From an uncultured delta proteobacterium (GTDB taxonomy: Bacteria; Desulfobacterota; BSN033; UBA1163): DNA of 64,000 nucleotides. This document shows, one piece after another, positions 13,422-49,053 of this stretch. The translations under genes and the position numbers were made by a program. The notes beneath the pieces were generated by a model that was not told the DNA's origin, made no database searches, and saw only the letters and a list, made by a program, of their open reading frames with translations. The stretch covers positions 1 to 64,000 of the forward strand of contig CAVPSJ010000016.1 of NCBI GenBank assembly GCA_963708295.1, given 5' to 3'. Every line of letters begins with the position of its first letter. Within the stretch, counting starts at the first letter, position 1.

Positions 13422-13440
13422 GAGAAGAAGATAGAGGTCG

Positions 13441-14331: not shown

Positions 14332-14352
14332 AGGAATCCGGAGGAGCACCTC

Positions 14353-14697
14353 ATGGGTAAGACGATGAAAAAAAATGGAGACCGAATTCTCTGGACCGGC
14401 GAAGATTCGAAGGCCGGGCCGAAAAGAATAAAATTACGCCGCCTCCTTCTGCTCGCGCTCCTCATGCTCTTTTTTATCGGGGGCTCGTTGTTCTATGTCT
14501 GGTCAAGAATTCAGGTGATCCGCCTCGGATACGAAATATCGAGTGCCCTGAAAGAAGAGAAGGCCCTGACCGAAGTCAACAAGAGGTTGCGGTTGGAAAT
14601 CGCCACACTCAAATCTTATGCGCGGATTGAGAAATTTGCCGTGGAGGAACTGAGAATGGTCAAGCCGAAACCAGAACAGGTGATCGTGATCCGATGA
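14353..14697 (+). CDS. ftsL: Cell division protein FtsL
   Basis: TM plus coiled coil; lies between rsmH and ftsI. Confidence 0.85.
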   Translation: MGKTMKKNGDRILWTGEDSKAGPKRIKLRRLLLLALLMLFFIGGSLFYVWSRIQVIRLGYEISSALKEEKALTEVNKRLRLEIATLKSYARIEKFAVEELRMVKPKPEQVIVIR

Positions 14698-16671: not shown

Positions 16672-16702
16672 GAGAACCGCAAAGAGCATAGAGCAAAGCT
16701 TA

Positions 16703-19639: not shown

Positions 19640-19642
19640 GAA

Positions 19643-20719
19643 ATGTTATATCATCTTCTTTATCCTCTTCATGACCCTTTTTTCCATTTTCAATGTCTTC
19701 CGGTATATCACGTTCAGGACGATCTACGCGATTCTGACCGCCCTTCTCATCTGTTTTATCATCGGGCCTTGGCTGATCAAGAAATTGAAGGCTTTCCAGA
19801 TTCAACAGGTGATCCGAGAGGATGTCCCCTCCCGACATATGGTTAAGAACGGGACTCCCACCATGGGAGGAGGCCTTATCCTGGCGGGATTCTCATCCCA
19901 ACCCTTTTCTGGTCCGACCTGTCGAATTCGTATACCTGGATCGTTTTGTTGACCACCCTGGGGTTCGGACTCCTGGGGTTCTGGGATGATTATAGAAAGA
20001 TGAGGGACAAGAATGGCATGGGGATCCGGGCTCGATACAAGTTTCCCATTCAGGTGGCCATGGGACTGGTGGCCAGCTTCGTCTTGTTCAACACCATTGA
20101 CCATGATTCCAGGTTGATTTTTCCATTCTTTAAGAAGGTGATGCCGGATCTCGGGGGATGGTACATCCTCTTTACCATGCTCGTCATCGTGGGCTCGGCG
20201 AATGCGGTGAACTTGACCGACGGACTGGATGGGTTGGCGATCGGCCCCGTGCTCATCGCCAGCGCGACGTTTATGCTCTTCTGCTATCTCGCAGGGAACT
20301 TCAGATTCGCAAGCTATCTTCAGATTCCCTTTGTCAGAGGAAGTGGAGAACTGACCATCCTGTGCGGGGCGCTGGTCGGTTCGGGACTGGGGTTTCTCTG
20401 GTTCAACACCTATCCGGCTCAGGTTTTCATGGGGGATGTGGGTTCTCTCTCCTTGGGAGCGGCCCTGGGGACCATCTCTGTGATCATCAAGCAAGAGTTT
20501 CTGTTAGTGATCGTCGGAGGGATCTTTGTGATTGAAGCCCTTTCCGTCATCATCCAGGTCGTCTCTTACAAGCTTCGCAGAAAACGGGTTTTTAGAATGG
20601 CGCCCATTCACCACCATTTTGAATTGAAAGGCTGGGCGGAACCGAAGATCATCGTCCGATTCTGGATCATCGGCATTATTCTCGGCCTGGTCGCGATCAG
20701 CACGCTGAAGATAAGATAG
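19643..20719 (+). CDS. mraY: Phospho-MurNAc-pentapeptide translocase, frameshifts in the N-terminal part
   Basis: [31 protein letters not shown]. Confidence 0.95.
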
Positions 20720-20814
20720 CAAATTATGAATTTTGAGTTATGAGTTGAGAATTTAGATTTAAGATTTGAAAATATTTTAATACCTCATAACTTATAATTC
20801 ATAACTCAAAACTG
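20720..20814. repeat. Inverted array of degenerate 7-mers
   Basis: (TTATGAA/TTATGAG)n followed by (CTCATAA)n. Confidence 0.75.
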
Positions 20815-22161
20815 ATGATGGATCTTCGTGGTAAAAATGTACTCGTGGTGGGCATGGCGCGAACGGGAATCGCCACAGCGAAATTCCTTAAGGCAAAAGG
20901 TTCTCTTGTGACGACTACGGAGATGAAGCCGGAAGAGGAGATGCGGGGGGCAGCTCAGGAATTGAAAAGCATGGATCTCTCGACGGAATGGGGAGGCCAT
21001 CAGACCGGGACCTTCCTCAAACAGGATCTGATAGTGGTCAGTCCCGGAATTGACCTGAACCTGGACCCCGTCCAAGAAGCCATCCGGCATGGAGTGCGGG
21101 TGATCAGTGAGATCGAACTGGCTTCCCATTTCATCCACGTCCCCATCCTTGCCATCACGGGAACCAATGGAAAGACGACCACCACCCTGCTTCTGGGCGA
21201 GATGTTGAAAGAGGACGGGAGAAGAGTCGGAGTGGGAGGGAATGTCGGAGAGCCATTGATCCTATTCGCAGACGGGGGCGACCGATGGGAAGTGTTGGTG
21301 GTCGAGATCTCCAGTTTTCAGCTGGAGGCGATTGAGGATTTTCGGCCCCGAATCTCTGTCCTGCTCAACATCACGGAGGATCATCTGGATCGGTATTCCA
21401 GTTACAGCGACTATATTCAGGCGAAGATGAGAATTTTCGCGAATCAGAATTCAGGAGACTTGGCCGTTCTCAACGGAGATGATCCGATCGTGATGCAGTA
21501 TGGAGGAAAGGCGAAGGCGAAAAAGGTTCTGTTCAGCATGCGCGAGAGGCTTAGGGAGGGCACTTTTTCCGATGGTCAAACGATCTCCCTGAGATACGAG
21601 GGGAACGGAGAGGAGTATCCCTTAGACAAAGCTCCGTTGAAGGGGGTCCACAATGTGGAGAATATGATGGCCGCCCTCACCGCCGCCCGGATCTTTGGTT
21701 GTTCGAAAAAGGCGGTGCAGAACGTACTCGATCGCTTTAGGGGGCTTGAACATCGTCTTGAATTTGTTCGAGAGATCGGAGGGGTTCGTTTCTACAACGA
21801 CTCCAAGGGAACCAATGTCGGGTCCGTCGTCAAATCCCTCCTAAGCTTTTCGGAGCCCGTGGTCCTGATTGCAGGAGGGAAGGATAAAAACGGAGATTTA
21901 AGCCCCCTGAAAGAATTGGTCCAAAAACGGGTGAAACGCCTGGTCCTCCTTGGCGAGGCAAAAGAGAGGATGAACCGTGAACTCGGTGGCATGACAGATA
22001 CCGTGATCGCCGGGACCATGGAGGAAGCGGTGTCCTTGGCCCGTGAGAAGGCCAAGGGAGGAGAAGTGGTTCTCCTGTCACCGGCCTGTTCCAGTTTTGA
22101 TATGTTCAAAGACTATAAGGAGAGAGGAAGGGTATTTAAGGAAGCCGTTCACCGCCTTTGA
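20815..22161 (+). CDS. murD: UDP-MurNAc-L-Ala:D-Glu ligase
   Basis: ITGTNGKTTT, EISSFQL, NDSKGTN, SPACSSFD. Confidence 0.97.
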   Translation: MMDLRGKNVLVVGMARTGIATAKFLKAKGSLVTTTEMKPEEEMRGAAQELKSMDLSTEWGGHQTGTFLKQDLIVVSPGIDLNLDPVQEAIRHGVRVISEIELASHFIHVPILAITGTNGKTTTTLLLGEMLKEDGRRVGVGGNVGEPLILFADGGDRWEVLVVEISSFQLEAIEDFRPRISVLLNITEDHLDRYSSYSDYIQAKMRIFANQNSGDLAVLNGDDPIVMQYGGKAKAKKVLFSMRERLREGTFSDGQTISLRYEGNGEEYPLDKAPLKGVHNVENMMAALTAARIFGCSKKAVQNVLDRFRGLEHRLEFVREIGGVRFYNDSKGTNVGSVVKSLLSFSEPVVLIAGGKDKNGDLSPLKELVQKRVKRLVLLGEAKERMNRELGGMTDTVIAGTMEEAVSLAREKAKGGEVVLLSPACSSFDMFKDYKERGRVFKEAVHRL

Positions 22162-22245
22162 AAGGCGGAGCGAATGGTTTGGAGGAATGCGTTCGGAGCC
22201 TGTCATAAATTCCGAACTCCAACCTCCGAACTCCGAACTTAAGGT
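22162..22245. repeat. Inverted array of degenerate 7-mers
   Basis: TTCGGAG units followed by (CTCCGAA)n. Confidence 0.65.
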
Positions 22246-23346
22246 ATGAAGGGGAAAAAGAGACTAGACGTCATTCTATTATTTTCAGCCCTTGCCCTTG
22301 TGGGGATCGGGATTGTGATGGTCTACAGCACCAGCGCGATCATCGCCGGGGATCGTTTTGGAGATCCGTACTACTTTCTAAAGCGCCAGGCCCTCTTCGC
22401 TGCCATCGGCCTTGTTTTGATGATCGTCATGATGCTCTTTCCTTATGAGACCCTGAAGAGGTTCGCCTATCCCGTTCTCATCGTCTCCGTCCTTTCCCTG
22501 ATTGCCGTGCTCATCCCGGGGATCGGGCACCGTGCGGGGGGAGCCATGCGCTGGCTGAAGATTCAGTTCTTCTCCTTTCAGCCCTCCGAGTTTGCCAAGC
22601 TGGGCTTGGTCATTTTTCTTGCCTACCTTTTGGATAAGAAGGAGGAGAAGATACGAAGTTTTTCTTTCGGATTTCTTCCCCCGGTCCTCCTCTCCGGTCT
22701 CGTCATCGCCCTGGTGATGAAGGAACCCGATTTCGGGGCAGCCTTCTTCCTCACGGTGATGGTTTTTCTTCTTCTCTTTGTCAGCGGCGCGAGGGTGATC
22801 TATATCTTGGGCGCTGTTTTGATCGCCCTGCCGGTGGCCTACACGCTTTTGATGAACGTAGGATACCGTTATAAAAGGTTGATGGGATTCATCCGGCCCT
22901 GGGATGACCCCACCGGCACGAGTTTCCAAATTATTCAGTCCTTTCTCTCCTTTGGTTCGGGAGGCCTCTTCGGACTAGGGTTGGGAGAGGGGAGACAGAA
23001 GCTTTTCTTCCTTCCCGCTCCCCACACGGACTTCATCTTTTCGATCATCGGAGAAGAGATGGGTCTGGTAGGAGCGATGGGGGTGGTGCTCCTTTTCTTC
23101 ATTCTGACCCTCCGAGGAATCCAGATTGGACTTTCCATCGAGGACCGGTTTGGCGCTTATCTGGCGCTGGGGATCACGTTGATGATCTCCCTTCAGGCGG
23201 TGATCAATATGGGAGTAGTCCTGGGACTCCTTCCCACCAAAGGGTTGACCCTTCCGTTCGTCAGTTATGGCGGGACATCGTTGGTCGCCAATTTGATCGG
23301 GGTGGGGATACTTCTTCACCTTTCGACTCATGCGGAACGAAGATGA
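22246..23346 (+). CDS. ftsW: SEDS peptidoglycan polymerase FtsW
   Basis: FQPSEFAK, HTDFIFS, LPFVSYGG. Confidence 0.96.
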   Translation: MKGKKRLDVILLFSALALVGIGIVMVYSTSAIIAGDRFGDPYYFLKRQALFAAIGLVLMIVMMLFPYETLKRFAYPVLIVSVLSLIAVLIPGIGHRAGGAMRWLKIQFFSFQPSEFAKLGLVIFLAYLLDKKEEKIRSFSFGFLPPVLLSGLVIALVMKEPDFGAAFFLTVMVFLLLFVSGARVIYILGAVLIALPVAYTLLMNVGYRYKRLMGFIRPWDDPTGTSFQIIQSFLSFGSGGLFGLGLGEGRQKLFFLPAPHTDFIFSIIGEEMGLVGAMGVVLLFFILTLRGIQIGLSIEDRFGAYLALGITLMISLQAVINMGVVLGLLPTKGLTLPFVSYGGTSLVANLIGVGILLHLSTHAERR

Positions 23347-24470
23347 GGTGTGTGATTGCTGGAGGGGGTACGGGAGGTCATCTTTTCCCGGGAATGGCGA
23401 TTGCTGAGGCATTCGTCGAGAGAGAAAAAGGGAACGAAGTGTTATTTATTGGGACCGAGAAAGGGATCGAAGCCAGGGTCTTGCCCGGAGGAAAATTTCC
23501 GTTGAAGACGATTCGAGCGAAACCCATTCAGGGGAAGTCTCCCCTGGAAAAGATGAAAGCGATTTGGGGCTTACCGATGGCCGTCTCCGAAGCTTTGACG
23601 ATCCTCAAAGAGTTTCAACCGCAACTGGTACTGGGCGTGGGGGGATATGCCTCCGGCCCAACCCTTCTGGCTGCCTCCCTTCTCGGGATGAAGCGGGCCA
23701 TCCAGGAACAGAATGTGATGCCCGGAATGACGAATCGAATTCTAAAGTGGTTCAGCCACCGAATCTTTGTCTCCTTTGAAGAGGCCGAGAAATACTTTCC
23801 CAGGAAGAAAACCCTGCTCACAGGCAACCCGATCCGGAAGGAATTCTTAGCAGCGCTGCGAGAAGATAAGGCGAGAGAGGAGAATAGGAATCGATTTACC
23901 CTCCTCGTTTTCGGAGGAAGCGCGGGGGCACACCGGATCAATCTGGCAATGATCGAAGCCCTAGACGACCTCCAAAGAATGAAATCATCCATGAAGATCA
24001 TTCATCAAACAGGGAAAGAGGATTTCGATTTTGTATCGGGGGAATATCGGGCAAGAGGAGTTGAGGCGCTGGTCAGGCCTTTTTTTGATGACCTCCCCGT
24101 CTACTACCGGATTGCCGATCTGGTCGTCTGCAGGTCGGGCGCAGGCACCGTCGCCGAGTTGGCGGTCTCCGGAAAGGTCGCGCTCTTCATCCCGTATCCC
24201 TATGCAGCTCACCAGCATCAATTGATCAATGCAAGGAAATTAGCCGATGTCGGTGCGGCAAGGATTATTTTAGACCAAGAGCTCAACGGGAAAATCTTGG
24301 CACAGGCCGTCCTCCACCTTCATGACCATCCGGAGGAGCGTGCAAAGATGGAGGAGGCGATTCAACGATTGGCGAGGCCGAGGGCAGCAGAGGAGATTGT
24401 CGATCACTGCTATGCCCTGGTTGGAAAAGGGATGAAGAGTTCTTTGAGTCGATTGGGTTTGTTGCGTTGA
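23343..24470 (+). CDS. murG: Undecaprenyl-PP-MurNAc-pentapeptide GlcNAc transferase
   Basis: GGGTGGH, GNPIR, GGSAGA, RSGAGTVAE, HQLINA. Confidence 0.96.
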   Translation: MRCVIAGGGTGGHLFPGMAIAEAFVEREKGNEVLFIGTEKGIEARVLPGGKFPLKTIRAKPIQGKSPLEKMKAIWGLPMAVSEALTILKEFQPQLVLGVGGYASGPTLLAASLLGMKRAIQEQNVMPGMTNRILKWFSHRIFVSFEEAEKYFPRKKTLLTGNPIRKEFLAALREDKAREENRNRFTLLVFGGSAGAHRINLAMIEALDDLQRMKSSMKIIHQTGKEDFDFVSGEYRARGVEALVRPFFDDLPVYYRIADLVVCRSGAGTVAELAVSGKVALFIPYPYAAHQHQLINARKLADVGAARIILDQELNGKILAQAVLHLHDHPEERAKMEEAIQRLARPRAAEEIVDHCYALVGKGMKSSLSRLGLLR

Positions 24471-24535
24471 TCGGGTTAACTCAAGAAACCCAATAAACCC
24501 AATAAACCCGAAGAACCCAAAGGACACAGAGAGAG
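24437..24535. repeat. Inverted array of degenerate 9-mers overlapping the murG stop
   Basis: (TTGRGT...)n followed by (AACCCAATA)n. Confidence 0.7.
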
Positions 24536-25906
24536 ATGTACCGAAGAGGAAGAATTAAGAATATCCATTTTGTGGGGATCGGTGGAATCGGCATGAGCGG
24601 GATCGCCGAGGTGTTGCTGAACCTCGGTTACCATATCAGCGGTTCTGACCTCAAGGAGACCGAGGTGACTCGAAGACTCCGGACGTTGGGATGTGACATC
24701 TCTTACGGCCACCGAAGGGAAAATCTGAGAGAAGCCGACGTGGTCGTCATCTCCTCAGCCGTTCGGAAAAACAACCCCGAGGTCGAAGCCGCCGAACAGA
24801 GGCTGATCCCCGTCATTCCAAGGGCAGAGATGTTGGCAGAGTTGATGCGAATGAAGATTGGGATTGCCATTGCGGGGACTCATGGGAAGACGACCACCAC
24901 CTCTCTCATCTCCACCGTCTTGGCGGCGGGCGGACTCGATCCCACCGTGGTGATCGGGGGAAGGCTGAACAGTATCGGAAGCAATGCGAGGCTGGGACAG
25001 GGTGAATTTTTGGTGGCCGAAGCGGATGAGAGCGACGGCTCCTTTCTGAAACTAATGCCCACCATAGCCGTCGTGACCAACATCGACCCGGAGCATCTTG
25101 ATTTCTACAAAGGGATCGAAGAGATCAAAGAGACCTTCCTCAGCTTTCTGGAAAAGATCCCGTTTTTTGGATTGGCCGTGCTTTGTCTCGATCATCCGAA
25201 TATTCAAAGTCTTCTTCCGAAGTTGAAGAAGCGCTTTGCCACGTACGGATTGACGACACAGGCTGACTTTCAAGCGAGGGAGGTAGCTTTCGAAGGGCTC
25301 TCCACCTCCTTTGACGTGTTCCACCATCGCCAGGAAATAGGCAGGTTAAGCCTCCGGATGCCCGGAGTTCATAACGTCTACAACGCCCTGGCCACTCTGG
25401 CCACGGCTTTTGAGCTGAATATTCCTTTTCGCGTCGTCCAGGAAACCCTGCGCGACTTTAGCGGGATTCAGAGGCGGTTTCAGATCAAAGGAGAGAAGAA
25501 GGGGGTCCTCATCGTAGATGATTACGGCCATCACCCTGTAGAAATTATGGCCACGCTCAAGGCGGCACGGACAGGTTGGGCGAAAAGGATCATCGCGGTA
25601 TTTCAACCGCATCGTTATACGAGGACGCAAACCCTGTTTAAAGATTTTCTCACCGCCTTTTATGACGCCGACGTCCTCATCCTTACCGATATCTACCCGG
25701 CAGGAGAGGATCGGATAGAAGGGGTTGAATCGAAAGCCTTGTTTGAGGGGCTCCGTGAATATGGCCATAAGGATGTCACGTATTTCGCCGAGAAAGGGGA
25801 GATCGTTGACCATCTCCTCCGTATCCTCTCCCCGGGGGATCTGGTGATCACCCTGGGAGCTGGGGATATCTGGCAGGTTTCAGAGGAGTTGGTGAAACGG
25901 TTATAA
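24536..25906 (+). CDS. murC: UDP-MurNAc:L-Ala ligase
   Basis: [37 protein letters not shown]. Confidence 0.97.
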
Positions 25907-25995
25907 GCCGTTCGGAGTGATTAGTTCGGAGTTCGGAGGAATATAGAGAAACTCCGAACTCAAAACTCTAAACTCCGAACTCAGACGCGAAGCGG
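25907..25995. repeat. Inverted array of 7-mers
   Basis: (GTTCGGA)n...(ACTCCGA)n. Confidence 0.75.
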
Positions 25996-26901
25996 ATGCA
26001 GAGGGACTACAAGAAATGGGCGTCGGGTCTGATCGAAGGGAGGGTTCTTTTCGATGCACCGATGAGGCGTTTCACATCGATGAAAGTGGGAGGGCCCGCG
26101 GACAGCCTTTTGTTTCCGAAGAATAAAGATGAATTGAAAAAGGTCGTCCGATATGCCAGGAGAAGAAAAATCCCTTTCTTGATTTTAGGGAATGGAACAA
26201 ACTTAGTGGTCACGGATAAGGGGGTTCGTGGATGGATCATCAACTTGACGCAAGGAATGAAAAAAATCGAGATGAACGGAGAGGTCGTCGAGGCCGAAGC
26301 GGGTTCTTCCCTGCAACGACTGGTTCAGTTCACCCTTCAGAAGGGGCTCCAGGGACTCGAACCCTTTTTTGGCATCCCTGGGACCGTAGGGGGTGGGGTG
26401 GCGATGAATGCCGGAGCCTGGGGTGCCGAATTGAAGGATGTCCTTCTTTCCGTGACCTTCATGAAGGAAGATGGAGAAATCACGGAGAGATCCCGTTCGA
26501 GACTTCGGTTCCCCTATCGAGGCTTGGTCCTTCCCCCTTCTTGGATTATCCTCAAAGGCAAGTTTCATTTGAAGAAAGGAATCAAAGAAGAAATTCGTGA
26601 CCGGGTGAGGTCTTATTCGGAGATGAGAAAGAAGAGGCAACCCCTGGATTATCCCAGCGCGGGGTCCGTATTCAAGAATCCCAAAGAAGGCCCGGCAGGA
26701 AAGTGGATCGAAGAAGCTGGATTAAAAGGATTTCGGATCGGCCAAGCCATGGTTTCAGAGCGCCATGCTAATTTCATCATCAATCTGGGAAAAGCCAGAG
26801 CCGAAGAAGTGATTCGTCTCATGGAGTTCGTGGAAAATAAGGTTTACGAGGAGAAGGGGATCTCCCTCGAAAGGGAGGTCAAGGTAGTGGGTGAACCCTA
26901 A
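25996..26901 (+). CDS. murB: UDP-N-acetylenolpyruvoylglucosamine reductase
   Basis: IPGTVGG..AMNAGA, SAGSVFKNP, HANFIIN. Confidence 0.96.
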   Translation: MQRDYKKWASGLIEGRVLFDAPMRRFTSMKVGGPADSLLFPKNKDELKKVVRYARRRKIPFLILGNGTNLVVTDKGVRGWIINLTQGMKKIEMNGEVVEAEAGSSLQRLVQFTLQKGLQGLEPFFGIPGTVGGGVAMNAGAWGAELKDVLLSVTFMKEDGEITERSRSRLRFPYRGLVLPPSWIILKGKFHLKKGIKEEIRDRVRSYSEMRKKRQPLDYPSAGSVFKNPKEGPAGKWIEEAGLKGFRIGQAMVSERHANFIINLGKARAEEVIRLMEFVENKVYEEKGISLEREVKVVGEP

Positions 26902-26911
26902 CGGGGGTTGC

Positions 26912-26964
26912 GCCCTGAACCATGTGAGGTTCAGGGCTGCCATGCACCCCACGTGGTGCATGGC
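26912..26964. repeat. Twin REP-like palindromes; related copy at 52944-52997
   Basis: GCCCTGAACCATGTGAGGTTCAGGGC and CCATGCACCCCACGTGGTGCATGG. Confidence 0.75.
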
Positions 26965-26998
26965 GGAATAAAGACGGTGGAGTTTTGGCGGTAACTCA

Positions 26999-27943
26999 AT
27001 GAAAGAGCCATCGCTCAAGAAGAGGAAAATCGCTGTGATGATGGGTGGGCTGTCTCGAGAGAGAGAGATCTCGGTGAAGACCGGAAAAGCCATCCTGAAG
27101 GCTCTCGGCGAAAAGGGATATCTTGTCATTCCTCTCGATGTCGGGAACGACATTGCAGAAAAATTGGTCAGGGAAAAGGTGGAGTGTGCTTTTCTGGCCC
27201 TCCACGGAAGATTTGGGGAAGATGGAACGATCCAGGGGATGTTGGAGTTGATGAGGATTCCGTATACCGGGTCAGGAGTGCTGGCGAGCGCCCTGGCCAT
27301 GCATAAAATCATGTCCAAGAAGCTCTTTCTCTGTGAGAAAATTCCGACCCCTCGGTTCGAGGCCTTTCGACGGGACGAAATCAAGAAAGATCCTGCCAGA
27401 CGGACTTCCCTCCCCCTGCCCGTCATCGTCAAGCCTGCCGGTGAAGGCTCTACGATCGGCGTTTCCATTGTCCGGAAGGAAGAGGAACTGATTCCCGCTT
27501 TAAAGAAGGCGGGAGAATACGATGAGGAGATATTGGTAGAGGAATTTGTGAAAGGCAAGGAAATCACCGTTGGCATTCTTGAAAATATTCCGTTGCCTGT
27601 CATTGAGATCGTCCCCAAGAGCGGTTTTTACGATTACTACTCTAAATATACCAAGGGTGAGACTCAATACATCCTCCCTGCTCGAATTCAAAGAGAGAAG
27701 TATCTCTCTGCGCAGGAGATCAGCCTCAGGGCCTTCCAGCGGCTGGGCTGCTCAGGGGTGGCGAGAGTCGACTTGATGACGGATGAGAATGAAAATCCGT
27801 ATGTGATTGACGTCAATACCATGCCGGGCATGACGGAGACGAGCCTCCTGCCCAAGGCAGCCCAGTATGCAGGCATTCCGTTTGAAGACTTGGTGGAGCG
27901 TATCTTGTTGGGGGCATCTTTGAAGATAGAGAGTGGAAAGTAA
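26999..27943 (+). CDS. ddl: D-Ala-D-Ala ligase
   Basis: GGLSREREIS, LHGRFGEDG, YDYYSKY, NTMPGMT. Confidence 0.96.
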   Translation: MKEPSLKKRKIAVMMGGLSREREISVKTGKAILKALGEKGYLVIPLDVGNDIAEKLVREKVECAFLALHGRFGEDGTIQGMLELMRIPYTGSGVLASALAMHKIMSKKLFLCEKIPTPRFEAFRRDEIKKDPARRTSLPLPVIVKPAGEGSTIGVSIVRKEEELIPALKKAGEYDEEILVEEFVKGKEITVGILENIPLPVIEIVPKSGFYDYYSKYTKGETQYILPARIQREKYLSAQEISLRAFQRLGCSGVARVDLMTDENENPYVIDVNTMPGMTETSLLPKAAQYAGIPFEDLVERILLGASLKIESGK

Positions 27944-28040
27944 AAAATAGTTTTTGGTTACTTGAGTTGCTTGAGTTCTTTGAGTTAACCCAATAAACTT
28001 AACGAACTCAATAAACTCAATAAACCATAGAGATAAAGAG
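27944..28040. repeat. Inverted array of 9-mers
   Basis: (TTGAGTT..)n followed by (AACTCAATA)n. Confidence 0.75.
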
Positions 28041-28865
28041 ATGGGAGAGCCCCTTACCGTACGAGATGGAAAATTTCTTCGACCGAGGATGCGAAGAACA
28101 GAAAAGGGCGGGGAGAGATTTCAAAAAATCGTGAGAAAAGCAATTCGAACGGCTTTTCAACTTCTTCTCCTCTCCTTTTTTCTCTTCATCGGCCATCGGG
28201 TTTATGTCCATCTCTTGAGCGATTCTTATTTTCGAGTCAGAGAGGTGGAGGTGGAGGGAAGCCGGAAGGTTCCAAAGGAAACCCTTCTTTCCCTCGCGGT
28301 GATGGAAGGGATGCCCAATCTCTTCTCGGTCAAGTTGAAGGAACTCGTGAAACGATTGGAGTCCCATCCCTGGATTGAGCAGGTTCGGGTCAGGAAGGTT
28401 TTTCCGAATAAGATCGTAATTCAGGTGGAAGAGAGAAAGCCGATGGCCATCATCCAATTGGAGGAGCTTTACTATATCGATACCCGAGGAGAGATTTTTA
28501 CTCCGGTCGGAGACAGAGATGAATATAATTACCCATATGTTACCGGCTTGACTCGGCGGGCTTTTGAAAAAGATCCGGTGGAAGCAAGGCGCCTCATCGG
28601 CAAGGCGCTTGAGCTTTTGAGGGTAGTGAATCAGGGGAAGACACTTCCTCTGGGGGAAATATCTGAGATCCATATGGAGAAGGCTTTTGGAATCCATTGT
28701 TTTACCAAAGCAGAAGGTGTGGAGGTCAAAATGGGATGGGAGGACTTTGAGGAGAAGATGAGGAGATTGCCTCTCATCTGGTCAGACCTTCGGAAAAGGG
28801 GATTGTCAGCGGTCTCGATTGATTGCAGTGACTTAACTCAAATGGTGGTGAGAATAGCCCCCTGA
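28041..28865 (+). CDS. ftsQ: Cell division protein FtsQ
   Basis: TM plus POTRA (HPWIEQVRVRKVFPNK..I.VEER); dcw position. Confidence 0.9.
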   Translation: MGEPLTVRDGKFLRPRMRRTEKGGERFQKIVRKAIRTAFQLLLLSFFLFIGHRVYVHLLSDSYFRVREVEVEGSRKVPKETLLSLAVMEGMPNLFSVKLKELVKRLESHPWIEQVRVRKVFPNKIVIQVEERKPMAIIQLEELYYIDTRGEIFTPVGDRDEYNYPYVTGLTRRAFEKDPVEARRLIGKALELLRVVNQGKTLPLGEISEIHMEKAFGIHCFTKAEGVEVKMGWEDFEEKMRRLPLIWSDLRKRGLSAVSIDCSDLTQMVVRIAP

Positions 28866-28893
28866 GGGAAAATGGGGAGGAGGTGATAAAAAG

Positions 28894-30120
28894 GTGGGAA
28901 AAAAGGAATCACTGGTCGTAGGACTGGATATCGGGACGACAAAAATTTGTACCGTGGTCGGCGAGATTTCTGAGGGCCAGGTCAACATCATCGGTCTTGG
29001 AACTTTTCCGTCGAAAGGATTACGAAAAGGGGTGGTCGTCAACATCGATAGCACTGTCCATTCGATCAAAAAGGCGGTCGAGGAAGCGGAGTTGATGGCA
29101 GGCTACCACCTCACTTCTGTCTATGCGGGGATTGCAGGCGGGCATATTCGAGGCATCAACAGTCACGGAGTGATTGCGGTAAAGAACAGGGAGATCAGTC
29201 CGAATGATGTGAAGCGAGTGATCGATGCTGCCAGTGCGGTGGCCATGCCCATGGATCGAGAGGTGATTCACATCATTCCCCAGGAATTCATCGTGGATGA
29301 TCAGGACGGCATCAAAGACCCTGTTGGGATGTCGGGGGTGAGACTGGAGGGAAGGGTTCATATTGTCACCGGCGCCATTACTTCTGCCCAGAATATCATT
29401 AAATGCGCGAACAAAGCAGGGTTGGACGTGGATGACATCGTCTTAGAACAGTTGGGTTCGAGCGAAGCGGTCCTGACACCTGAAGAGAAAGATCTGGGAG
29501 TGGCCATCATCGATATCGGGGGTGGGACCACGGACCTGGTGATCTTCTCAAATGGCGCGATTAAGCATACTTCGGTGTTTTCTTTAGCCGGAAGCCATAT
29601 CACGAATGACATCTCGATGGGACTTCGGACACCTGCAGAAGAGGCGGAGAAGATAAAAATAAGATATGGTTGTGCCCTGACTTCGTTGGTCCGGAAGGAT
29701 GAAACCATTGAAGTTCCAAGTGTGGGAGGAAGGAAACCTCGTGTCCTTTCCAGACAGACCCTGGCCGAGATCGTCGAACCCAGGGTTGAGGAGATTCTCA
29801 CCTTGGTCCAGCATGAAGTGGTCAAAACGGGATTTTCGAGCCTGCTTGCCTCTGGCATCGTCCTCAGCGGAGGAAGTGCCCTTCTGGAGGGTGTTCCCGA
29901 GTTGGCTGAACAGATTTTTAATCTGCCCGTTCGCAGGGGAAGTCCTGTAGGGATCGGTGGGTTGACAGACCTGGTGGCGAGCCCCATCTATGCGACCGGG
30001 GTGGGCCTCGTTCTCTACGGAAGTCGAAATAAAGGGCAGAGTCGGTTCAAGGTGGGCGAGGGAAGTATCTTCAATAAGGTGACCCACCGGATGAGGGAAT
30101 GGATTGGAGAATTCTTTTAA
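28894..30120 (+). CDS. ftsA: Cell division protein FtsA
   Basis: GLDIGTTKI, DIGGGTTD. Confidence 0.97.
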   Translation: MGKKESLVVGLDIGTTKICTVVGEISEGQVNIIGLGTFPSKGLRKGVVVNIDSTVHSIKKAVEEAELMAGYHLTSVYAGIAGGHIRGINSHGVIAVKNREISPNDVKRVIDAASAVAMPMDREVIHIIPQEFIVDDQDGIKDPVGMSGVRLEGRVHIVTGAITSAQNIIKCANKAGLDVDDIVLEQLGSSEAVLTPEEKDLGVAIIDIGGGTTDLVIFSNGAIKHTSVFSLAGSHITNDISMGLRTPAEEAEKIKIRYGCALTSLVRKDETIEVPSVGGRKPRVLSRQTLAEIVEPRVEEILTLVQHEVVKTGFSSLLASGIVLSGGSALLEGVPELAEQIFNLPVRRGSPVGIGGLTDLVASPIYATGVGLVLYGSRNKGQSRFKVGEGSIFNKVTHRMREWIGEFF

Positions 30121-30290
30121 AAGCGTAAACTCGAAACTCGAATATCGGATGAAGGGTCCGTCTCGGACCAATTCGAAACAAACACAAAATTCAAATTTCA
30201 AATTTGATAGAGTTTTAAATCACTTCTAATTTTGAACTTTGAACATTGGGATTTGTTTCGTGCTTCAGATTTTTACTTAAAAAAAAGGAG
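30121..30290. repeat. Inverted degenerate 7-mer array; similar array at 44270-44420
   Basis: AAACTCGAAACTCGAA...AATTCAAATTTCAAA followed by TTTGAACTTTGAA...GATTTGTTTCG. Confidence 0.6.
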
Positions 30291-30297
30291 GGGAGAC

Positions 30298-31518
30298 ATG
30301 ATTGAATTCGACGAAAATAAAAATCTGGCTGCCAAGGTCAAGATCATCGGAATCGGAGGGGGAGGAAACAATGCCCTGAACACCATGATTTCTTATCAGC
30401 TCTCCGGGGTCGATTTTATCGCGGCCAATACCGATGCTCAGGCATTGGCGGAGAATATGGCTCCATTCAAACTGCAATTGGGTGAAAATTTGACGAAAGG
30501 CTTAGGAGCCGGAGCCAATCCGGAGGTGGGAAGAAAGGCCGCGCTCGAGGATGTGGAGCGGATCCGAGAAGTGCTCAAAGGGGCAGACATGGTCTTCATC
30601 ACAGCCGGGTTGGGCGGCGGGACGGGCACGGGCGGGGCGCCGGTGATTGCAGAGGTGGCCCGTGAAATGGGCGCCCTCACCGTGGGCATCGTGACCAAAC
30701 CCTTTCTCTTCGAAGGAAAGAAACGGATGAAACAGGCTGAGGAGGGATTGGCCAATCTGAAGATGACGGCGGATGCCCTCATCACCATCCCGAACCAGCG
30801 GCTCCTTGGCATCAGCGGAAAGAGCATGACCCTGATCGAGGCTTTTAAAAAGGCGGATGACGTTCTCTATCACGCTGCCAAAGGAATTTCAGACATCATT
30901 GTTGGCCACGGCATTATCAATTTGGACTTTGCCGATGTCCGAACGGTCATGGCCGAAACAGGATTGGCATTGATGGGAACAGGAATAGCTTCGGGTGAGA
31001 ATCGATCCGTGGAAGCCGCTCAAAAGGCGATTTCCAGCCCTCTCCTGGAAGACATCACGATCGAAGGTGCCATGGGGCTTCTCATCAACATCACCGGGGG
31101 CGAAAATATGACCCTCAACGAAATCAATGAGGCGACCACGCTCATCCAGAAGGAAGCCCATGAAGATGCCAACGTGATCTGGGGAATGGTGGTCGACAAG
31201 ACGATGAAGGAAGAGATTCGGGTGACCGTGATCGCTACCGGTTTTGGAAGAAAAGAGGAGAAGAAGACTTTTCAGTTTAAGAAGGGGGCTCCGATCTCCT
31301 TTGGCCTGAGAGAGCCCAGCAAGGACATTTCGGATTTCTCTCTTGCTCACAAGCAGAATCACCGGGACATCCCCGCGTTTATGAGAAAGGTGAAGACGAA
31401 CGAGCGGTACGATGAGCTCAAATCGGAGCCGTTGCAGGATTTCTCCGCGCAGGATTTTTCCATGGAGGATGAGGATCGTTTTGATATCCCTACCTTTTTG
31501 CGGAAACAGGCCGACTGA
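30298..31518 (+). CDS. ftsZ: Cell division protein FtsZ
   Basis: GGGTGTG, NLDFADV, C-terminal DIPTFLRKQAD; ATG at 30298 after GGAGG. Confidence 0.98.
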   Translation: MIEFDENKNLAAKVKIIGIGGGGNNALNTMISYQLSGVDFIAANTDAQALAENMAPFKLQLGENLTKGLGAGANPEVGRKAALEDVERIREVLKGADMVFITAGLGGGTGTGGAPVIAEVAREMGALTVGIVTKPFLFEGKKRMKQAEEGLANLKMTADALITIPNQRLLGISGKSMTLIEAFKKADDVLYHAAKGISDIIVGHGIINLDFADVRTVMAETGLALMGTGIASGENRSVEAAQKAISSPLLEDITIEGAMGLLINITGGENMTLNEINEATTLIQKEAHEDANVIWGMVVDKTMKEEIRVTVIATGFGRKEEKKTFQFKKGAPISFGLREPSKDISDFSLAHKQNHRDIPAFMRKVKTNERYDELKSEPLQDFSAQDFSMEDEDRFDIPTFLRKQAD

Positions 31519-44488: not shown

Positions 44489-45517
44489 ATGAAATGTAAT
44501 TTAATCAAGCAAGGATATCCCCAGGGAAACTGTTTTGTTGAGACTGAACAGGGGAAGTTTCTCGCCTGCGACGCTACTCTCAAAAAGACCGACAACGGCC
44601 TCCTCAGGCTGATCTCCGCCGCTCATCTCTCCCGTCCGGAAAATTACCTCTCCATCTACCAATCCGGTTGTATGTTCTCCTGTCGAAAATGTCACTCCTG
44701 GAATTTCACAAAAATTGCCAAGGGCGATTGGTGGTCTCCCGCTGACGTTTTGAAGGCCTGTAGGGAATATGAAAAGGAAGTCACGGTTCGGGAGCCTCGA
44801 AACAGGGCCACCGCCTTTCATGCCCACGATTCCTGCCGCGGTTGCGGGGCTTGTGTCATGCATGGAAAGCGGTCTTCCCTTTGTCCCAGAGTCATCGAGA
44901 AGAATGAAATCGTCTTGAGTCCTCAGGGATGGGGTCCTGCGCGCAATATCGTTGCCTTCACGGGAGGAGATCTGACCTGTTGCCCGGAGTACTATATCGC
45001 GTGCACTCGCCTCATCAAACAAGAAACCAAGCTCTGGGTACTGATCGAAACGAACGGTTATGGACTTACTCCTCAAAACCTCGATGCCTTCAAGGAGGCA
45101 GGGGTGGACTCGTTCTGGCTTGACCTCAAGGCCTACGACGGGACCGACCACAAATGGCTGACCGGCTGCTTCAACCGGAATATTCTCAAACTTCCGGGAG
45201 AGATCGTGAAAAGGGGTTTTGTTCTAGAAGTTCTCTCCCTCTACATTCCAAACCTCGTGGAGACGCCCCAGTTGAAAAAGATGGCCCAACTCATTTTTGA
45301 CGTCGATCCCGAGATTCCCTATACCCTGTCGGCTTTTTTCCCTGAATATCAGATGAAGCGGTACAAAAGCCCAAAGGTCTCCGAGATGATAGAGGCCTAC
45401 ATGGGAGTGAGGGCCGTCGGACTCAGGAACGTGAGACTGGGAAACACTGGAGTTTTCGCGTCGTCGGAGCAGGACTATGTTCTTTTGAAAAGAAAGGTGG
45501 CGGCGGGGGACTACTAG
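44489..45517 (+). CDS. Radical SAM protein, activating-enzyme-like, with a Cys-rich insertion
   Basis: CMFSCRKC, CRGCGAC...C, FTGGD, ETNG. Confidence 0.85.
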   Translation: MKCNLIKQGYPQGNCFVETEQGKFLACDATLKKTDNGLLRLISAAHLSRPENYLSIYQSGCMFSCRKCHSWNFTKIAKGDWWSPADVLKACREYEKEVTVREPRNRATAFHAHDSCRGCGACVMHGKRSSLCPRVIEKNEIVLSPQGWGPARNIVAFTGGDLTCCPEYYIACTRLIKQETKLWVLIETNGYGLTPQNLDAFKEAGVDSFWLDLKAYDGTDHKWLTGCFNRNILKLPGEIVKRGFVLEVLSLYIPNLVETPQLKKMAQLIFDVDPEIPYTLSAFFPEYQMKRYKSPKVSEMIEAYMGVRAVGLRNVRLGNTGVFASSEQDYVLLKRKVAAGDY

Positions 45518-45552
45518 GTGTGCTGAGTTGAAAATTGAAAGAAAGGGCGGGA

Positions 45553-47040
45553 ATGGAGCGGATTAAGAATTATATCAACGGGAAATGGGTTGGTTCCAAG
45601 TCTGGGGAGACTTTTCGATCGATCAACCCAGCCAATATAGACGACGTGGTCGGAGTCGTTTCGAGATCAGGCCGGGAAGATGTGGATCAAGCCGTCCGGG
45701 CCGCGCAAGGGGCCTATGACGCGTGGCGGCTCACCCCGGCCCCGCGTCGAGGTGAGATCCTGTTCAGGGCTGCGGAGATTCTGTTGCGAAATAAGGAGTC
45801 TCTGGGAAAGATGGAAACGCGGGAAATGGGGAAAATTCTTTCGGAAGGCCTGGGCGATGTCCAGGAGGCCATTGACATGGGTTACTACATGGCCGGAGAG
45901 GGAAGGAGACTTTCCGGGGAGACGGTTCCCTCCGAACTGTCCCATAAGGATATGAAATCCGTTCGCGTTCCCGTCGGGGTGTTCGGTTTGATTACTCCGT
46001 GGAATTTTCCTATGGCCATCCCAGCCTGGAAGGTTTTTCCGGCTCTGATCTGCGGGAATACGGTCGTCTTCAAACCTTCCAGTGACACGCCTGTATGCGC
46101 CGCGAAGTTCGTGGAAGCGTTGGTGGAAGCGGGTTTGCCCAAAGGGGTTCTTAACCTCTTTCATGGGCCAGGAGGAGAAGCAGGGGAATATCTGGTGAGC
46201 CATCCGGGAGTGGATGCCGTTTCCTTCACCGGTTCTTTTGATACCGGGAAGCGGCTCGAAGCAATCTGTGGAGCCATCCATCGGACGATCGCGACGGAGA
46301 TGGGTGGAAAGAACGCAATCATTGTCATGGACGATGCGAATCTCGATTTGGCCGTGGAGGGGGCTGTCTGGGGCGGTTTCGGAACGACCGGCCAGCGGTG
46401 CACGGCTGCCAGTCGAATCGTTGCGCACAGGAAGGTCTACCGGAAATTCATCGAAAGGTTTAAGACTGCCGCCTCCCGCCTCAAACTGGGAGACGGTCTT
46501 CAAAAAGAGACGGACATGGGTCCGGTGATCAACGAATCTCAGTTCAACAAGATTCTTAGATACATCGAGATCGGGAGGAGCGAAGGCGCGAAGCTCATCT
46601 TAGGAGGGAAGGCCTGCCGGAAGGGCAATTGCTCCAAAGGGTATTTCATCGAACCCACGATTTTTATCGATGTCACCCCTGAGATGCGGATTGCCCGGGA
46701 GGAAATTTTTGGACCGGTTGTTTCAGTGATCAAGGCAGAAAACCTTGAGGACGCCGTTCAGATCGTCAATCGCACGTCCTACGGACTTTCCTCCTCGATC
46801 TACACTCAGAACGTCAATGCATCGGCCATCGCAGAGAGAGATCTGGACACAGGAATCGTGTACATCAATGCCTCCACCATCGGCGCGGAAATCCAGCTTC
46901 CTTTTGGAGGGATCAAGCATTCGGGCTATGGAAGGAAGGAGGCAGGAGGTCGAGGAGGCGCCTTGGACACCTACAGTCGATGGAAGGTGATCTACCGGGA
47001 TTTCAGCGGTCGTCTTCAGAAGGCGCAGATTGATAAGTAA
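45553..47040 (+). CDS. Aldehyde dehydrogenase
   Basis: ITPWNFP, FTGS, EMGGKN, GQRCTA, EEIFGPV. Confidence 0.95.
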   Translation: MERIKNYINGKWVGSKSGETFRSINPANIDDVVGVVSRSGREDVDQAVRAAQGAYDAWRLTPAPRRGEILFRAAEILLRNKESLGKMETREMGKILSEGLGDVQEAIDMGYYMAGEGRRLSGETVPSELSHKDMKSVRVPVGVFGLITPWNFPMAIPAWKVFPALICGNTVVFKPSSDTPVCAAKFVEALVEAGLPKGVLNLFHGPGGEAGEYLVSHPGVDAVSFTGSFDTGKRLEAICGAIHRTIATEMGGKNAIIVMDDANLDLAVEGAVWGGFGTTGQRCTAASRIVAHRKVYRKFIERFKTAASRLKLGDGLQKETDMGPVINESQFNKILRYIEIGRSEGAKLILGGKACRKGNCSKGYFIEPTIFIDVTPEMRIAREEIFGPVVSVIKAENLEDAVQIVNRTSYGLSSSIYTQNVNASAIAERDLDTGIVYINASTIGAEIQLPFGGIKHSGYGRKEAGGRGGALDTYSRWKVIYRDFSGRLQKAQIDK

Positions 47041-47180
47041 ATGGAGTAATGGAGTGTTGGAATGATGGAACAATGGGTCCCAAACGTAATGCCTAATACC
47101 TGTCCGAATCTTGGAGATCTCTTAATAAAGAATAAGAACTTTTTAATCCAATACTCCGATACTCCATTATTCCAATACAC
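47041..47180. repeat. Inverted array of degenerate 8-mers
   Basis: ATGGAGTAATGGAGTGTTGGAATGATGG...CCAATACTCCGATACTCCATTATTCCA. Confidence 0.75.
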
Positions 47181-47261
47181 CCTTATGCCAACAAAGGGTT
47201 GAATCTTTGTCAGTGGTATGATAATGAAAATCCAAGGCTTGTGTTCTTAAGGGGAGGTCTC

Positions 47262-48629
47262 ATGGATAAGAAAGTCCTCATCGTGGATGATGAGGAGAGA
47301 GTTGTGGAATCGATCGCAGGCGTCCTGGAGGACGAAGGCTTCCGGGTCGCTACGGCGAGGAGCGGAGAAGACGCGATTCGAGCCTTCGAGCAGGAAAAGC
47401 CGGATGTCACCCTTCTCGACATCTGGATGCCCGGGATGGATGGCATCGAGATATTGAAACGACTCAAAGGGATTGCCCCGGAGTGCCAGGTCATCATGAT
47501 CTCCGGTCATGCAACGATCTCTACTGCCATGACCTCCGTGAAATTAGGGGCCTTTGACTTCATTGAAAAGCCTCTTTCCCTCGATGTGCTTCTGCTCACC
47601 ATTCGTCGAGCCCTCGATCGTCAGGAGAACTTATCATCCGTCGAGGGATCGGAAACAAGGGTCGGCCAGGAGCCTCTTCAAGACCGGAAGATTTCTCCGG
47701 AGGAGATCGTTGGCGAGCCTCCTGTTCCTCCATCTGAGTTGCTGCGCCAGGCCATTCCCGTGGCGAAGGAGGCTGCCAGAAGAAAAGGAACCTCTTCGTT
47801 GCCTCAGCGTACCCTGAGACAGAGTATGGTGCTTTATGGAACCGGACTCCATTCTGGAAAGAAGACAGGACTTCTTCTCCAACCCCTTCCCCCGCATAGT
47901 GGAATTCTCTTTGGAAGCATCTCGTCGGATGAGGTGGTTCCTGCCCATCTGGATTTTGTTCAGACGACCGATTTTGCCACCTCGCTGAAGAGGGGAAGTG
48001 CCATTGCCAAGACGGTCGAGCATCTTATGGCGGTGTTGCACGCCTATCATGTCAGCAACCTGATGGTGAAGATGATCGAAGAGATTCCGATCATGGACGG
48101 GTCTGCCTCGGAGTTCTGCAAAATGATAGAAGAGGCAGGGATAGAGGAACAGGAAGAGAAGGTTAATGAATTGATCATTGATCGAAAAATGGAAATTATT
48201 CACAAACAGAAGTCCCTCATTATCGAGCCAGCGGAGAACTTCTCGATTCACTTCTTTCTGGACTACCCGCCGCCTATTGGGCAGCAGACCCTGGACTTTG
48301 TCCTGGAGAGCGAGGAGGTCTTTAAGGATCAAATCGCTCCGGCGAGAACCTTTGGTTTTGTCAAAGATATAGAGATGCTCAATCGGATGGGATTAGCAGG
48401 AGGAGGACGGCTTCATAATATTATCCTGGTAGATGATGAGAAGATCGTCAACACTGAGCTTCGATTTCCGGATGAATTTGTAAGGCATAAAATTCTCGAT
48501 TTGATCGGTGATTTCTATCTCCTCAATCGCCCGATTCGGGGGAAGGTGACCGCCCATTTAACCGGCCACACGGAAAACATCGCCCTGATGAAGAAGATTC
48601 AGGAAGCGGCAAGAGAGAAGGAACGGTGA
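47262..48629 (+). CDS. lpxC: Response-regulator receiver domain fused to UDP-3-O-acyl-GlcNAc deacetylase
   Basis: Receiver: VDDE, LDIWMPGMDG, ISGH, EKP. LpxC: GTGLHSG, TVEHLMA, IPIMDGS, APARTFG, HKILDLIGD, GH. Single uninterrupted frame. Confidence 0.92.
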   Translation: MDKKVLIVDDEERVVESIAGVLEDEGFRVATARSGEDAIRAFEQEKPDVTLLDIWMPGMDGIEILKRLKGIAPECQVIMISGHATISTAMTSVKLGAFDFIEKPLSLDVLLLTIRRALDRQENLSSVEGSETRVGQEPLQDRKISPEEIVGEPPVPPSELLRQAIPVAKEAARRKGTSSLPQRTLRQSMVLYGTGLHSGKKTGLLLQPLPPHSGILFGSISSDEVVPAHLDFVQTTDFATSLKRGSAIAKTVEHLMAVLHAYHVSNLMVKMIEEIPIMDGSASEFCKMIEEAGIEEQEEKVNELIIDRKMEIIHKQKSLIIEPAENFSIHFFLDYPPPIGQQTLDFVLESEEVFKDQIAPARTFGFVKDIEMLNRMGLAGGGRLHNIILVDDEKIVNTELRFPDEFVRHKILDLIGDFYLLNRPIRGKVTAHLTGHTENIALMKKIQEAAREKER

Positions 48630-48657
48630 GAGGTCACTTTTCTCTTTGGAGGGAGAC

Positions 48658-49053
48658 ATGGCACAAGAAGAACGACCCCCGATGAAAGAATTCCTGGATA
48701 TGCTCGCGGATCTTCTGACCGAAAAGTATTTCGAACGGGTGGAAGAGCGAATCAAAAAGATCCCCGAACTCCGGAGATTGATCACGGCGAAAGAAGCAAG
48801 CCAGTATTTAAGCCTTTCCACAGATACCGTCTACCGAATGGCCGCGTTGAAGAAACTTCCCTACCTCAAGATCGGGGATCGGGTTCTTTTCGACGTCAAA
48901 GCCCTCGATCACTGGATTGAGAGGCATATGATCGGGGATAAGGAATGGAAGAAAGAAGAATCGAAGCCGGGGATCGAAAAGGAAAAGGCGAATACAAAAG
49001 CCTTGAAAGAATCCGACCTTCTTGACTTGCTCAAGAAAAAAGGAAAAGATTAG
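48658..49053 (+). CDS. Excisionase-like (HTH_17) DNA-binding protein
   Basis: LITAKEASQYLSLSTDTVYRM...LPYLKIGDRVLF...LDHWI. Confidence 0.8.
   Translation: MAQEERPPMKEFLDMLADLLTEKYFERVEERIKKIPELRRLITAKEASQYLSLSTDTVYRMAALKKLPYLKIGDRVLFDVKALDHWIERHMIGDKEWKKEESKPGIEKEKANTKALKESDLLDLLKKKGKD

Follow-up and report, generated by a model that had tools for sequence, protein, structure and literature searches.

A receiver domain apparently derived from NtrX on the LpxC of an uncultured delta proteobacterium, and a possible two-component control of lipid A synthesis

Can a bacterium control lipid A synthesis by carrying the receiver domain of a two-component system directly on LpxC, the enzyme of the committed step? 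The question is raised by a gene in a 64,000-nt stretch of DNA from an uncultured delta proteobacterium (assembly GCA_963708295.1, contig CAVPSJ010000016.1, positions 1 to 64,000; this whole stretch is called the window below), in which a single open reading frame (ORF) encodes a receiver (REC), a flexible linker and LpxC (REC-LpxC, Table 1). How LpxC flux is set outside the Enterobacteria is an open question, and here a large bacterial group bears a regulator on the enzyme itself, so that the question can be tested with one purified protein, phosphorylated or not. The reading favoured here, to which we give a probability of about 0.6, is that REC-LpxC is the housekeeping LpxC with an NtrX-derived receiver, that the histidine kinase NtrY sets the phosphorylation of Asp53, and that LpxC would be controlled post-translationally in this way. 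An envelope-linked kinase would then probably control lipid A synthesis directly on the enzyme, and not via gene expression.

The fused protein and its distribution

The parent ORF of REC-LpxC extends over 47199..48629 (+), and the start was assigned to the ATG at 47262. The N-terminal part of the protein matches Response_reg (PF00072; residues 5-114, E = 6e-32, 110.5 bits), and its best solved relatives are receivers of the NtrX/NtrC family (E about 1e-25). The C-terminal part matches LpxC (PF03331; residues 182-447, model positions 1-267 of 268, E = 2.9e-84, 283 bits against a cut-off of 27), passes the NCBIfam lpxC equivalog TIGR00325 (248.5 bits, cut-off 187.25) and has LpxC chains as its best solved relatives (E = 2.7e-52). 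In two alignments E253-H254, H409-K410-x-x-D413 and H436 line up with the solved LpxC chains, whose zinc ligands and catalytic Glu/His we take to be E78, H79, H238, D242 and H265 in E. coli numbering. No FabA/FabZ domain is matched by the fused protein in Pfam, and the LpxC-FabZ model NF009667 reaches 208.5 bits, under its cut-off of 465; the protein resembles bifunctional LpxC-FabZ in being an LpxC fusion, and differs in that FabZ is missing and the partner is an N-terminal signalling domain.

Conservation was assessed in 38 fused homologs from many families (45-81% identity). The receiver switch residues D9, D10, D53 (in LDIWMP), S81 (in ISGH), K103 and P104 are invariant in this set, as are E253, H254, T363, H409, K410, D413, D417 and H436 of LpxC. 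The Pro/Glu-rich linker of ~55 residues, which stands where relatives keep AAA+ and helix-turn-helix (HTH) modules, is hypervariable in sequence and in length (~25 to 75 residues). An AlphaFold2 model built from the 38-row alignment has two confident domains, with the receiver as a (beta-alpha)5 fold at pLDDT about 90, residues 128-176 below pLDDT 50 and a pTM of 0.65. Pfam, residues and alignments thus agree with the preliminary description of this DNA, made from the letters of the sequence, which had seen a receiver with full signalling residues, a Pro/Glu linker and a complete LpxC in one frame.

An artefact, in which a frameshift or an assembly error would have run a regulator gene into lpxC, has to be considered because murE, murF, mraY and tctA look split in the same window. 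However, both Pfam domains are present in 120/120 best of 8000 scored database relatives (79-91% identity), the same architecture recurs in 50 loci of other genomes, and independent contigs cross the junction. They stem from other sequencing runs and carry no indels where they span receiver, linker and LpxC (DNA contigs at 47188-47765 and 47702-48163, and one from an RNA library at 47545-47887); since the runs contain at most 0.42 of the sampled words, the contigs come from relatives or strains. The shared architecture of the relatives and the bridging contigs refute the artefact, which retains next to no probability, and the fusion is supported across the linker as well as by its presence in relatives.

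The assembly of the window's genome (4.95 Mb, 20 contigs, 91% complete) has exactly one PF03331 match, which is the fused gene, and encodes LpxB and LpxK, which act later in lipid A synthesis, elsewhere. The supposition that this would be the only lpxC has therefore stood. As judged by family models and motifs, the fused protein is the likely housekeeping LpxC of the genome and a predicted deacetylase.

The prevalence of the fusion was surveyed in 401 genomes sampled across the phylum. An LpxC family match is present in 378 of these, in two copies in six (G034, G074, G199, G258, G270 and G312), and about 103 carry the fused LpxC clade (best match E <=2.5e-66, LpxC part at least 45% identity); the other LpxC-bearing genomes among the matches listed have free-standing proteins of ~310 aa with ~40% identity. 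Receiver and LpxC in one frame were checked directly for 50 distinct loci, the rest being assigned by score and open-frame length. The fused gene is the only LpxC in 98 of the 103 carrier genomes. The fusion is therefore common in this phylum and no rarity. Among the best 150 matches to 50%-identity cluster representatives, roughly 40 are full-length fused proteins, and in the ESM Atlas both domains occur in 17 of the 30 nearest named clusters. The commonest phyla on three rows of Atlas labels are Thermodesulfobacteriota, Acidobacteriota and Ca. Binatota; as the labels of these clusters are its source, spread outside the phylum is taken as a lead only.

One of the six genomes with two copies, G312, has a canonical lpxC-DUF4390-ntrY-ntrX cluster (L086, G312:C12:94000-101000) plus a 446-aa REC-LpxC (L076, G312:C17) that adjoins an IS200-like transposase. 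With a stated contamination of 7%, this double set could reflect horizontal transfer or a mixed bin. An alignment-based contig scan gave mostly free-standing proteobacterial LpxC among the matches listed, and two candidate fusions, L105 (a Nitrospirae metagenome-assembled genome) and L153, were rejected, since in each the regulator and LpxC are encoded by two distinct genes.

The REC-LpxC architecture is already in databases, unremarked and annotated simply as LpxC. A full-text search, with subscription journals outside it, found no paper describing a receiver-LpxC or NtrX-LpxC fusion. A 2025 review of lipid A (PMC12444477) lists, in its available text, only proteolysis, LapB-type control and indirect transcriptional effects; NtrYX appears there only as a transcriptional influence on lpxC, and a word search of that text returned none of 'fusion', 'fused' and 'response regulator'. 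The NtrX origin of the receiver, its place on the sole LpxC of about a quarter of the phylum, and the series of decaying intermediates described below appear to be previously undescribed.

Descent from NtrX and the kinase NtrY

By sequence comparison, the receiver is an ortholog of the NtrX receiver. For the receivers of regulators encoded after ntrY, the best match among the ORFs of the window's genome is REC-LpxC in 11/11 cases (130-147 bits, 49-59% identity, versus 100-122 bits for the next-best matches listed), and in the reverse direction the best match of the window receiver is the regulator after ntrY in 5/5 genomes (127-145 bits versus at most 102). The best NCBIfam receiver model is that of NtrX (NF051870, 129 bits versus 103 for AtoC). 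These reciprocal best hits and the NF051870 match identify as NtrX a receiver that had been described as 'NtrC/NtrX-like'. The rest of the NtrX architecture is missing, with no central AAA+ and no C-terminal Fis-type HTH found in the window protein by Pfam, and the protein is therefore descended from NtrX without being an NtrX by architecture.

In a number of other genomes, REC-LpxC is preceded by a kinase gene of the NtrY type (NtrY_N, HAMP, PAS, HisKA and HATPase_c; Pfam). When 27 distinct fused genomes were searched by script, 14 had ntrY as the immediate upstream neighbour of REC-LpxC, both genes pointing the same way and some 26-145 nt apart; a hand count that included further listed coordinates found the pair in 19 genomes of 10 families. 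The deepest branches of the LpxC tree (families f81, f74, f67 and f40) are among those with ntrY upstream. An NtrY ortholog is present in 374/401 genomes, nearly always as a single copy.

The window's genome has one NtrY ortholog (contig C17, G000:C17:178058-180226), with the same NtrY_N, HAMP, PAS, HisKA and HATPase_c domains and 51% full-length identity to the kinase preceding REC-LpxC in genome G162. Here the fused gene is not directly downstream of ntrY, and the two genes lie on different contigs in 12/12 genomes of the window's family. On C17, ntrY is preceded by a gene for a DUF4390 protein with a hydrophobic N-terminus (signal or anchor) and followed by smpB; these are the flanking genes examined, and no regulator is found beside ntrY among them. 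In five fused genomes that have the fused gene elsewhere, the gene after ntrY is a non-regulator in four (ParB_N-like, SmpB twice and NAD kinase) and unclear in the fifth. Where the fused gene has moved away in families f1, f61 and f15, smpB lies directly 3' of ntrY (L068, L083 and L084), which looks like a clean excision of the regulator from an older ntrY-regulator-smpB order.

Free-standing lpxC, too, is linked to ntrY: of the 78 genomes with both positions listed, 45 have lpxC 0.3-1.4 kb 5' of a co-directional ntrY (hand comparison). The gene after ntrY in such loci encodes an intact regulator (REC-Sigma54_activat-AAA_lid-HTH_8) in 11/12 cases, and the genes scanned between lpxC and ntrY are DUF4390 in 4/4. 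Genomes with free lpxC mostly show the order lpxC-DUF4390-ntrY-ntrX. In the twelfth locus (L075, G260:C32:26000-35500), ntrY is followed by a Kdo transferase gene (Glycos_transf_N), another tie between the ntrY locus and lipopolysaccharide (LPS) synthesis. The cluster matches the gene order reported for S. fumaroxidans, in which lpxC is directly upstream of the operon orthologous to that of D. vulgaris DVU2934 (PMC3333781).

Several relatives have more of NtrX than the window protein. In the long forms, REC-AAA+-HTH-LpxC, Pfam places a weak sigma54-type AAA+ domain with its lid between REC and LpxC, and alignment with intact regulators reveals a complete NtrX, including the Fis-type HTH segment, followed by about a dozen residues and then LpxC. 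NF051870 matches one long form across positions 3-452 of 452, and a long-form AlphaFold2 model has four folded modules, among them a three-helix bundle at residues 396-439 (block mean pLDDT about 59-86). The long forms keep Walker A and have lost the GAFTGA loop, the Walker B acidic pair and the arginine-finger region, losses which suggest a dead, sigma54-blind AAA+; their Sigma54_activat E-values are 1e-41 to 1e-7, versus about 1e-70 in intact regulators. Two proteins, P0131 (491 aa) and P0133 (505 aa), are REC-HTH_8-LpxC without AAA+, the HTH aligning with that of NtrX. The short REC-linker-LpxC form is found by Pfam in the window protein and other relatives, and the linkers of families f15 and f2 keep remnants of the post-receiver coiled-coil helix. 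In a tree of LpxC domains, 50 fused domains form one clade (support 100, stem 0.91) apart from 12 free LpxC.

From the intermediates, the graded decay of AAA+, the coiled-coil remnants in the f15 and f2 linkers and mechanistic plausibility, we infer a reductive order, leading from intact NtrX and separate lpxC through a dead NtrX-LpxC and REC-HTH-LpxC to REC-linker-LpxC. The history would begin with the cluster lpxC-DUF4390-ntrY-ntrX, usual for lpxC in this phylum, and in one lineage the frames of a whole NtrX and of LpxC would have merged; the AAA+ of the fused NtrX would then have lost its sigma54 contact and ATPase residues, and AAA+ and subsequently HTH would have been deleted. In the window's family, the fused gene would also have moved away from ntrY. 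If this order is right, the series is a transcription factor turned into an enzyme-bound switch.

Control of LpxC and competing explanations

In the mechanism envisaged, the membrane kinase NtrY and its periplasmic DUF4390 partner would set the phosphorylation of Asp53, and the state of the receiver would change LpxC output through receiver dimerisation, docking on the catalytic domain or altered stability, so that an envelope signal would set lipid A flux with transcription bypassed. The alpha4-beta5-alpha5 segment KLGAFDFIEKPLSLD hardly differs between intact NtrX and the fused proteins, which suggests a dimerisation switch common to both; LpxC-domain docking and stability control are equally possible. 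A complex prediction for the receiver (1-125) and LpxC (176-455) from the 38-row alignment scored 0.00, and is evidence neither way.

Parts of this scheme have precedents in the NtrYX family, where NtrYX has been linked functionally to lpxC in publications on R. sphaeroides and Caulobacter (PMC7240162, PMC12444477). Loss of ntrYX in R. sphaeroides raises lpxC mRNA 8.8-fold by an indirect route (PMC7240162). The DUF4390 protein PlrP was recently proposed, on genetic evidence, as a periplasmic third component of an NtrYX-family system, in a paper whose available text names neither LpxC nor Desulfo- taxa (PMC13001219). The system described here is like NtrY/NtrX, including Bordetella PlrS/PlrR/PlrP, in the architecture of the kinase and the preceding DUF4390 gene (PMC13001219), and in its orthologous receiver, with the whole NtrX domain order kept in the long relatives. 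It differs in that the output is the LpxC enzyme, not a DNA-binding domain, and in that the window's gene is not beside ntrY. The NtrC-family regulator DVU2934 of D. vulgaris, encoded in an operon with the kinase DVU2931, binds upstream of lpxC as its single target and is alike in its two-component logic dedicated to lpxC and in belonging to the phylum in the wide sense; there, control is transcriptional and the proteins are separate (PMC3333781). With an enzyme as output, NtrYX, which is widespread and has diffuse phenotypes, would gain a concrete biochemical target, and the DUF4390 component gains a context outside the Proteobacteria.

Response regulators with enzymatic outputs are known, among them CheB, PleD/WspR and RpfG. 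REC-LpxC is like these in its order of N-terminal receiver, linker and catalytic domain, and the enzyme would be expected to be gated by phosphorylation. They are signalling enzymes, whereas LpxC is a committed envelope biosynthetic enzyme present as the sole copy, and the linker here is much longer and unconserved. In E. coli, LpxC is controlled by FtsH, LapB and YejM, with proteolysis via a C-terminal degron. The control proposed here would likewise act post-translationally on the committed step according to envelope state, and would differ in using a fused phospho-switch in place of a degron. LpxC is an antibiotic target, and a natural allosteric or tethered regulator could show new routes of inhibition.

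The direct two-component control of LpxC put forward in the preliminary description is supported by the invariant switch residues, the status of the fused gene as sole LpxC and the candidate kinase NtrY, and is not supported in its claim that phosphorylation affects activity. Several points weigh against the reading favoured above. No computation or experiment here shows phosphotransfer from NtrY or an effect of receiver state on LpxC, and the pairing of NtrY with the fused protein rests on orthology because the two genes lie apart in the window's family. Between receiver and LpxC runs an unconserved linker that is predicted to be disordered, and given its low pLDDT and the pTM of the model, no fixed arrangement of the two domains is predicted. 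A receiver tree of 130 columns, too few for the purpose, does not group NtrX and fused receivers in a resolved clade, and scores against the NtrX model are under the NCBI equivalog cut-off even for the intact regulators of the phylum (523 versus 600). The long forms branch next to f79, inside the fused clade of the LpxC tree and not at its base (deep supports 82-93), so that this tree alone gives no long-first order, and state-change counting alone on it favours a short ancestor.

Other explanations assign the receiver a different role. It might be a phosphorylation-dependent stability or targeting tag (for FtsH, Lon or ClpXP, or for localisation) that leaves catalysis unchanged. Receiver domains act in proteolysis in RssB and CpdR, and a long, disordered and unconserved linker is more in keeping with a tag on a tether than with close allosteric contact. 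The known control of LpxC is mostly proteolytic in the available text of the lipid A review (PMC12444477), and a tag would keep the E. coli logic of controlling LpxC amount, placed under NtrY. We nevertheless consider the tag unlikely, with no adaptor or protease gene linked to the locus among the window ORFs and flanks scanned; a match of PF18073 (the LapB zinc ribbon) to a 124-aa frame is uninformative for LapB, being found also in 10/14 control genomes, Gram-positives included. It is quite improbable that the receiver is an unphosphorylated relic kept for folding or constitutive dimerisation, with LpxC regulated elsewhere or not at all. AAA+ and HTH of the same ancestor are decayed or lost, so that functional decay in the fused lineage is real, and kinase and fused gene are unlinked in the window's family; yet the six switch residues stay invariant in 38 sequences beside a freely varying linker, and single-copy NtrY with HisKA and HATPase_c is kept in 374/401 genomes.

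Information might also flow in reverse, LpxC or its substrate/product occupancy modulating the receiver, with the fusion acting as a phosphate sink or feedback sensor for NtrY or, in the long forms, with LpxC as a ligand-sensing module for a still DNA-binding NtrX. The folded three-helix HTH and Walker A kept in the long forms may mean a DNA- or nucleotide-binding role. This direction is very improbable. The short forms, the window's included, are without a DNA-binding module, and a phosphate sink would have no competitor, since the short-form genomes examined show no other regulator beside ntrY. The invariant catalytic residues and sole-LpxC status indicate that the enzyme function is primary.

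Beyond post-translational control of LpxC by NtrY, a wider proposal can be advanced tentatively, namely that the entire NtrY system (DUF4390 protein, NtrY and the NtrX-derived receiver) has LpxC as its sole, transcription-free output, and that the fusion records an original lipid A/outer-membrane job of NtrYX. If so, the ancestral operon would have been lpxC-DUF4390-ntrY-ntrX, the changes in lpxC transcription seen in Desulfovibrio, Rhodobacter and Caulobacter would be left over from that original role, and the signal of NtrY would narrow to a reporter of LPS or outer-membrane state.

Neighbouring genes and other features of the window

The features of the REC-LpxC locus are collected in Table 1. 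A scan for sigma70 promoters gave no hit on the + strand ahead of the fused gene, and no sigma54 promoter search was made.

Table 1. Coordinates of REC-LpxC, its parts and the following gene in the window
Feature	Position	Strand	Basis
Fused REC-linker-LpxC gene, 455 aa	47262..48629, stop codon included	+	ORF list, Pfam, TIGR00325
Ribosome-binding site AGGGGAGG	47250..47257	+	4 nt before fused-gene ATG, read from sequence
Receiver domain, residues 1-125	47262..47636	+	Pfam, reciprocal best hits, NF051870
Flexible linker, residues 126-181	47637..47804	+	Hypervariable in 38 homologs, low pLDDT
LpxC catalytic domain, residues 182-447	47805..48602	+	Pfam, alignment to solved LpxC chains
Excisionase-family HTH protein gene, 131 aa	48658..49053	+	Pfam HTH_17, TIGR01764

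The gene downstream of REC-LpxC encodes an HTH protein that matches HTH_17 (PF12728, E = 1.7e-12, 47.8 bits against a cut-off of 27) and the excisionase-family domain TIGR01764 (45.5 bits, cut-off 28.8; NCBIfam). Its likely ATG at 48658 lies 28 nt past the LpxC stop, behind GGAGGGAG. No terminator-like + strand site was found between the two genes, and they are probably co-transcribed. No integrase, recombinase or histidine-kinase family was found among the 58 window ORFs of at least 110 aa (6 ORFs scanned at E<=0.01 and 52 at E<=1e-6), in agreement with earlier remarks that an excisionase-type HTH gene starts 28 nt downstream with no integrase nearby, and that the window holds no histidine kinase. 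In the window's genome the HTH gene has no close paralog, the one other tblastn match having 28% identity.

It had been suggested that the HTH protein adds a transcriptional layer to the control of LpxC. This has not been upheld, since the tight linkage is confined to one family. The HTH gene directly follows REC-LpxC in 11/12 genomes of the window's family, the contig of the twelfth ending there; it was not found beside the fused gene by tblastn in 18 loci of f33, f15, f2 and f79, nor by Pfam in the flanks of 17 loci from other families.

Upstream of REC-LpxC, a 146-nt palindromic element (47042-47187) separates the gene from an aldehyde dehydrogenase gene. It consists of 8-nt repeats, TGGAGTNN on one arm and its complement on the other, with a folding energy of -51.5 kcal/mol (z = -5.3), and 32 such repeat arrays, often in inverted pairs, were found genome-wide by regular expression. 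Contigs of two other runs skip exactly from 47041 to 47188, with 20 different letters there. From its sequence, the element looks like a mobile REP- or MITE-like insertion.

The window also has a complete division/cell-wall (dcw) cluster, mraZ to ftsZ, at 12978-31515, with REC-LpxC 16 kb further on. In many Proteobacteria, lpxC is directly after ftsZ. Three genes, murE, murF and mraY, are each broken into two or three ORFs that lie in different frames, and tctA is in two (16703-20719 and 511-2015); as murE, murF and mraY are essential, assembly indel errors are likelier than pseudogenes.

The neighbours of REC-LpxC vary between and within families. A radical SAM gene (44489-45517 in the window) is directly upstream of REC-LpxC in seven members of the window's family; in the window itself, and in two further members with flanks that show it, the aldehyde dehydrogenase gene (45535-47040) takes this place. 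In families f15 and f49 (L044, L045 and L060), a glutamate-racemase-like gene (Asp_Glu_race, 269-297 aa) is convergent to REC-LpxC.

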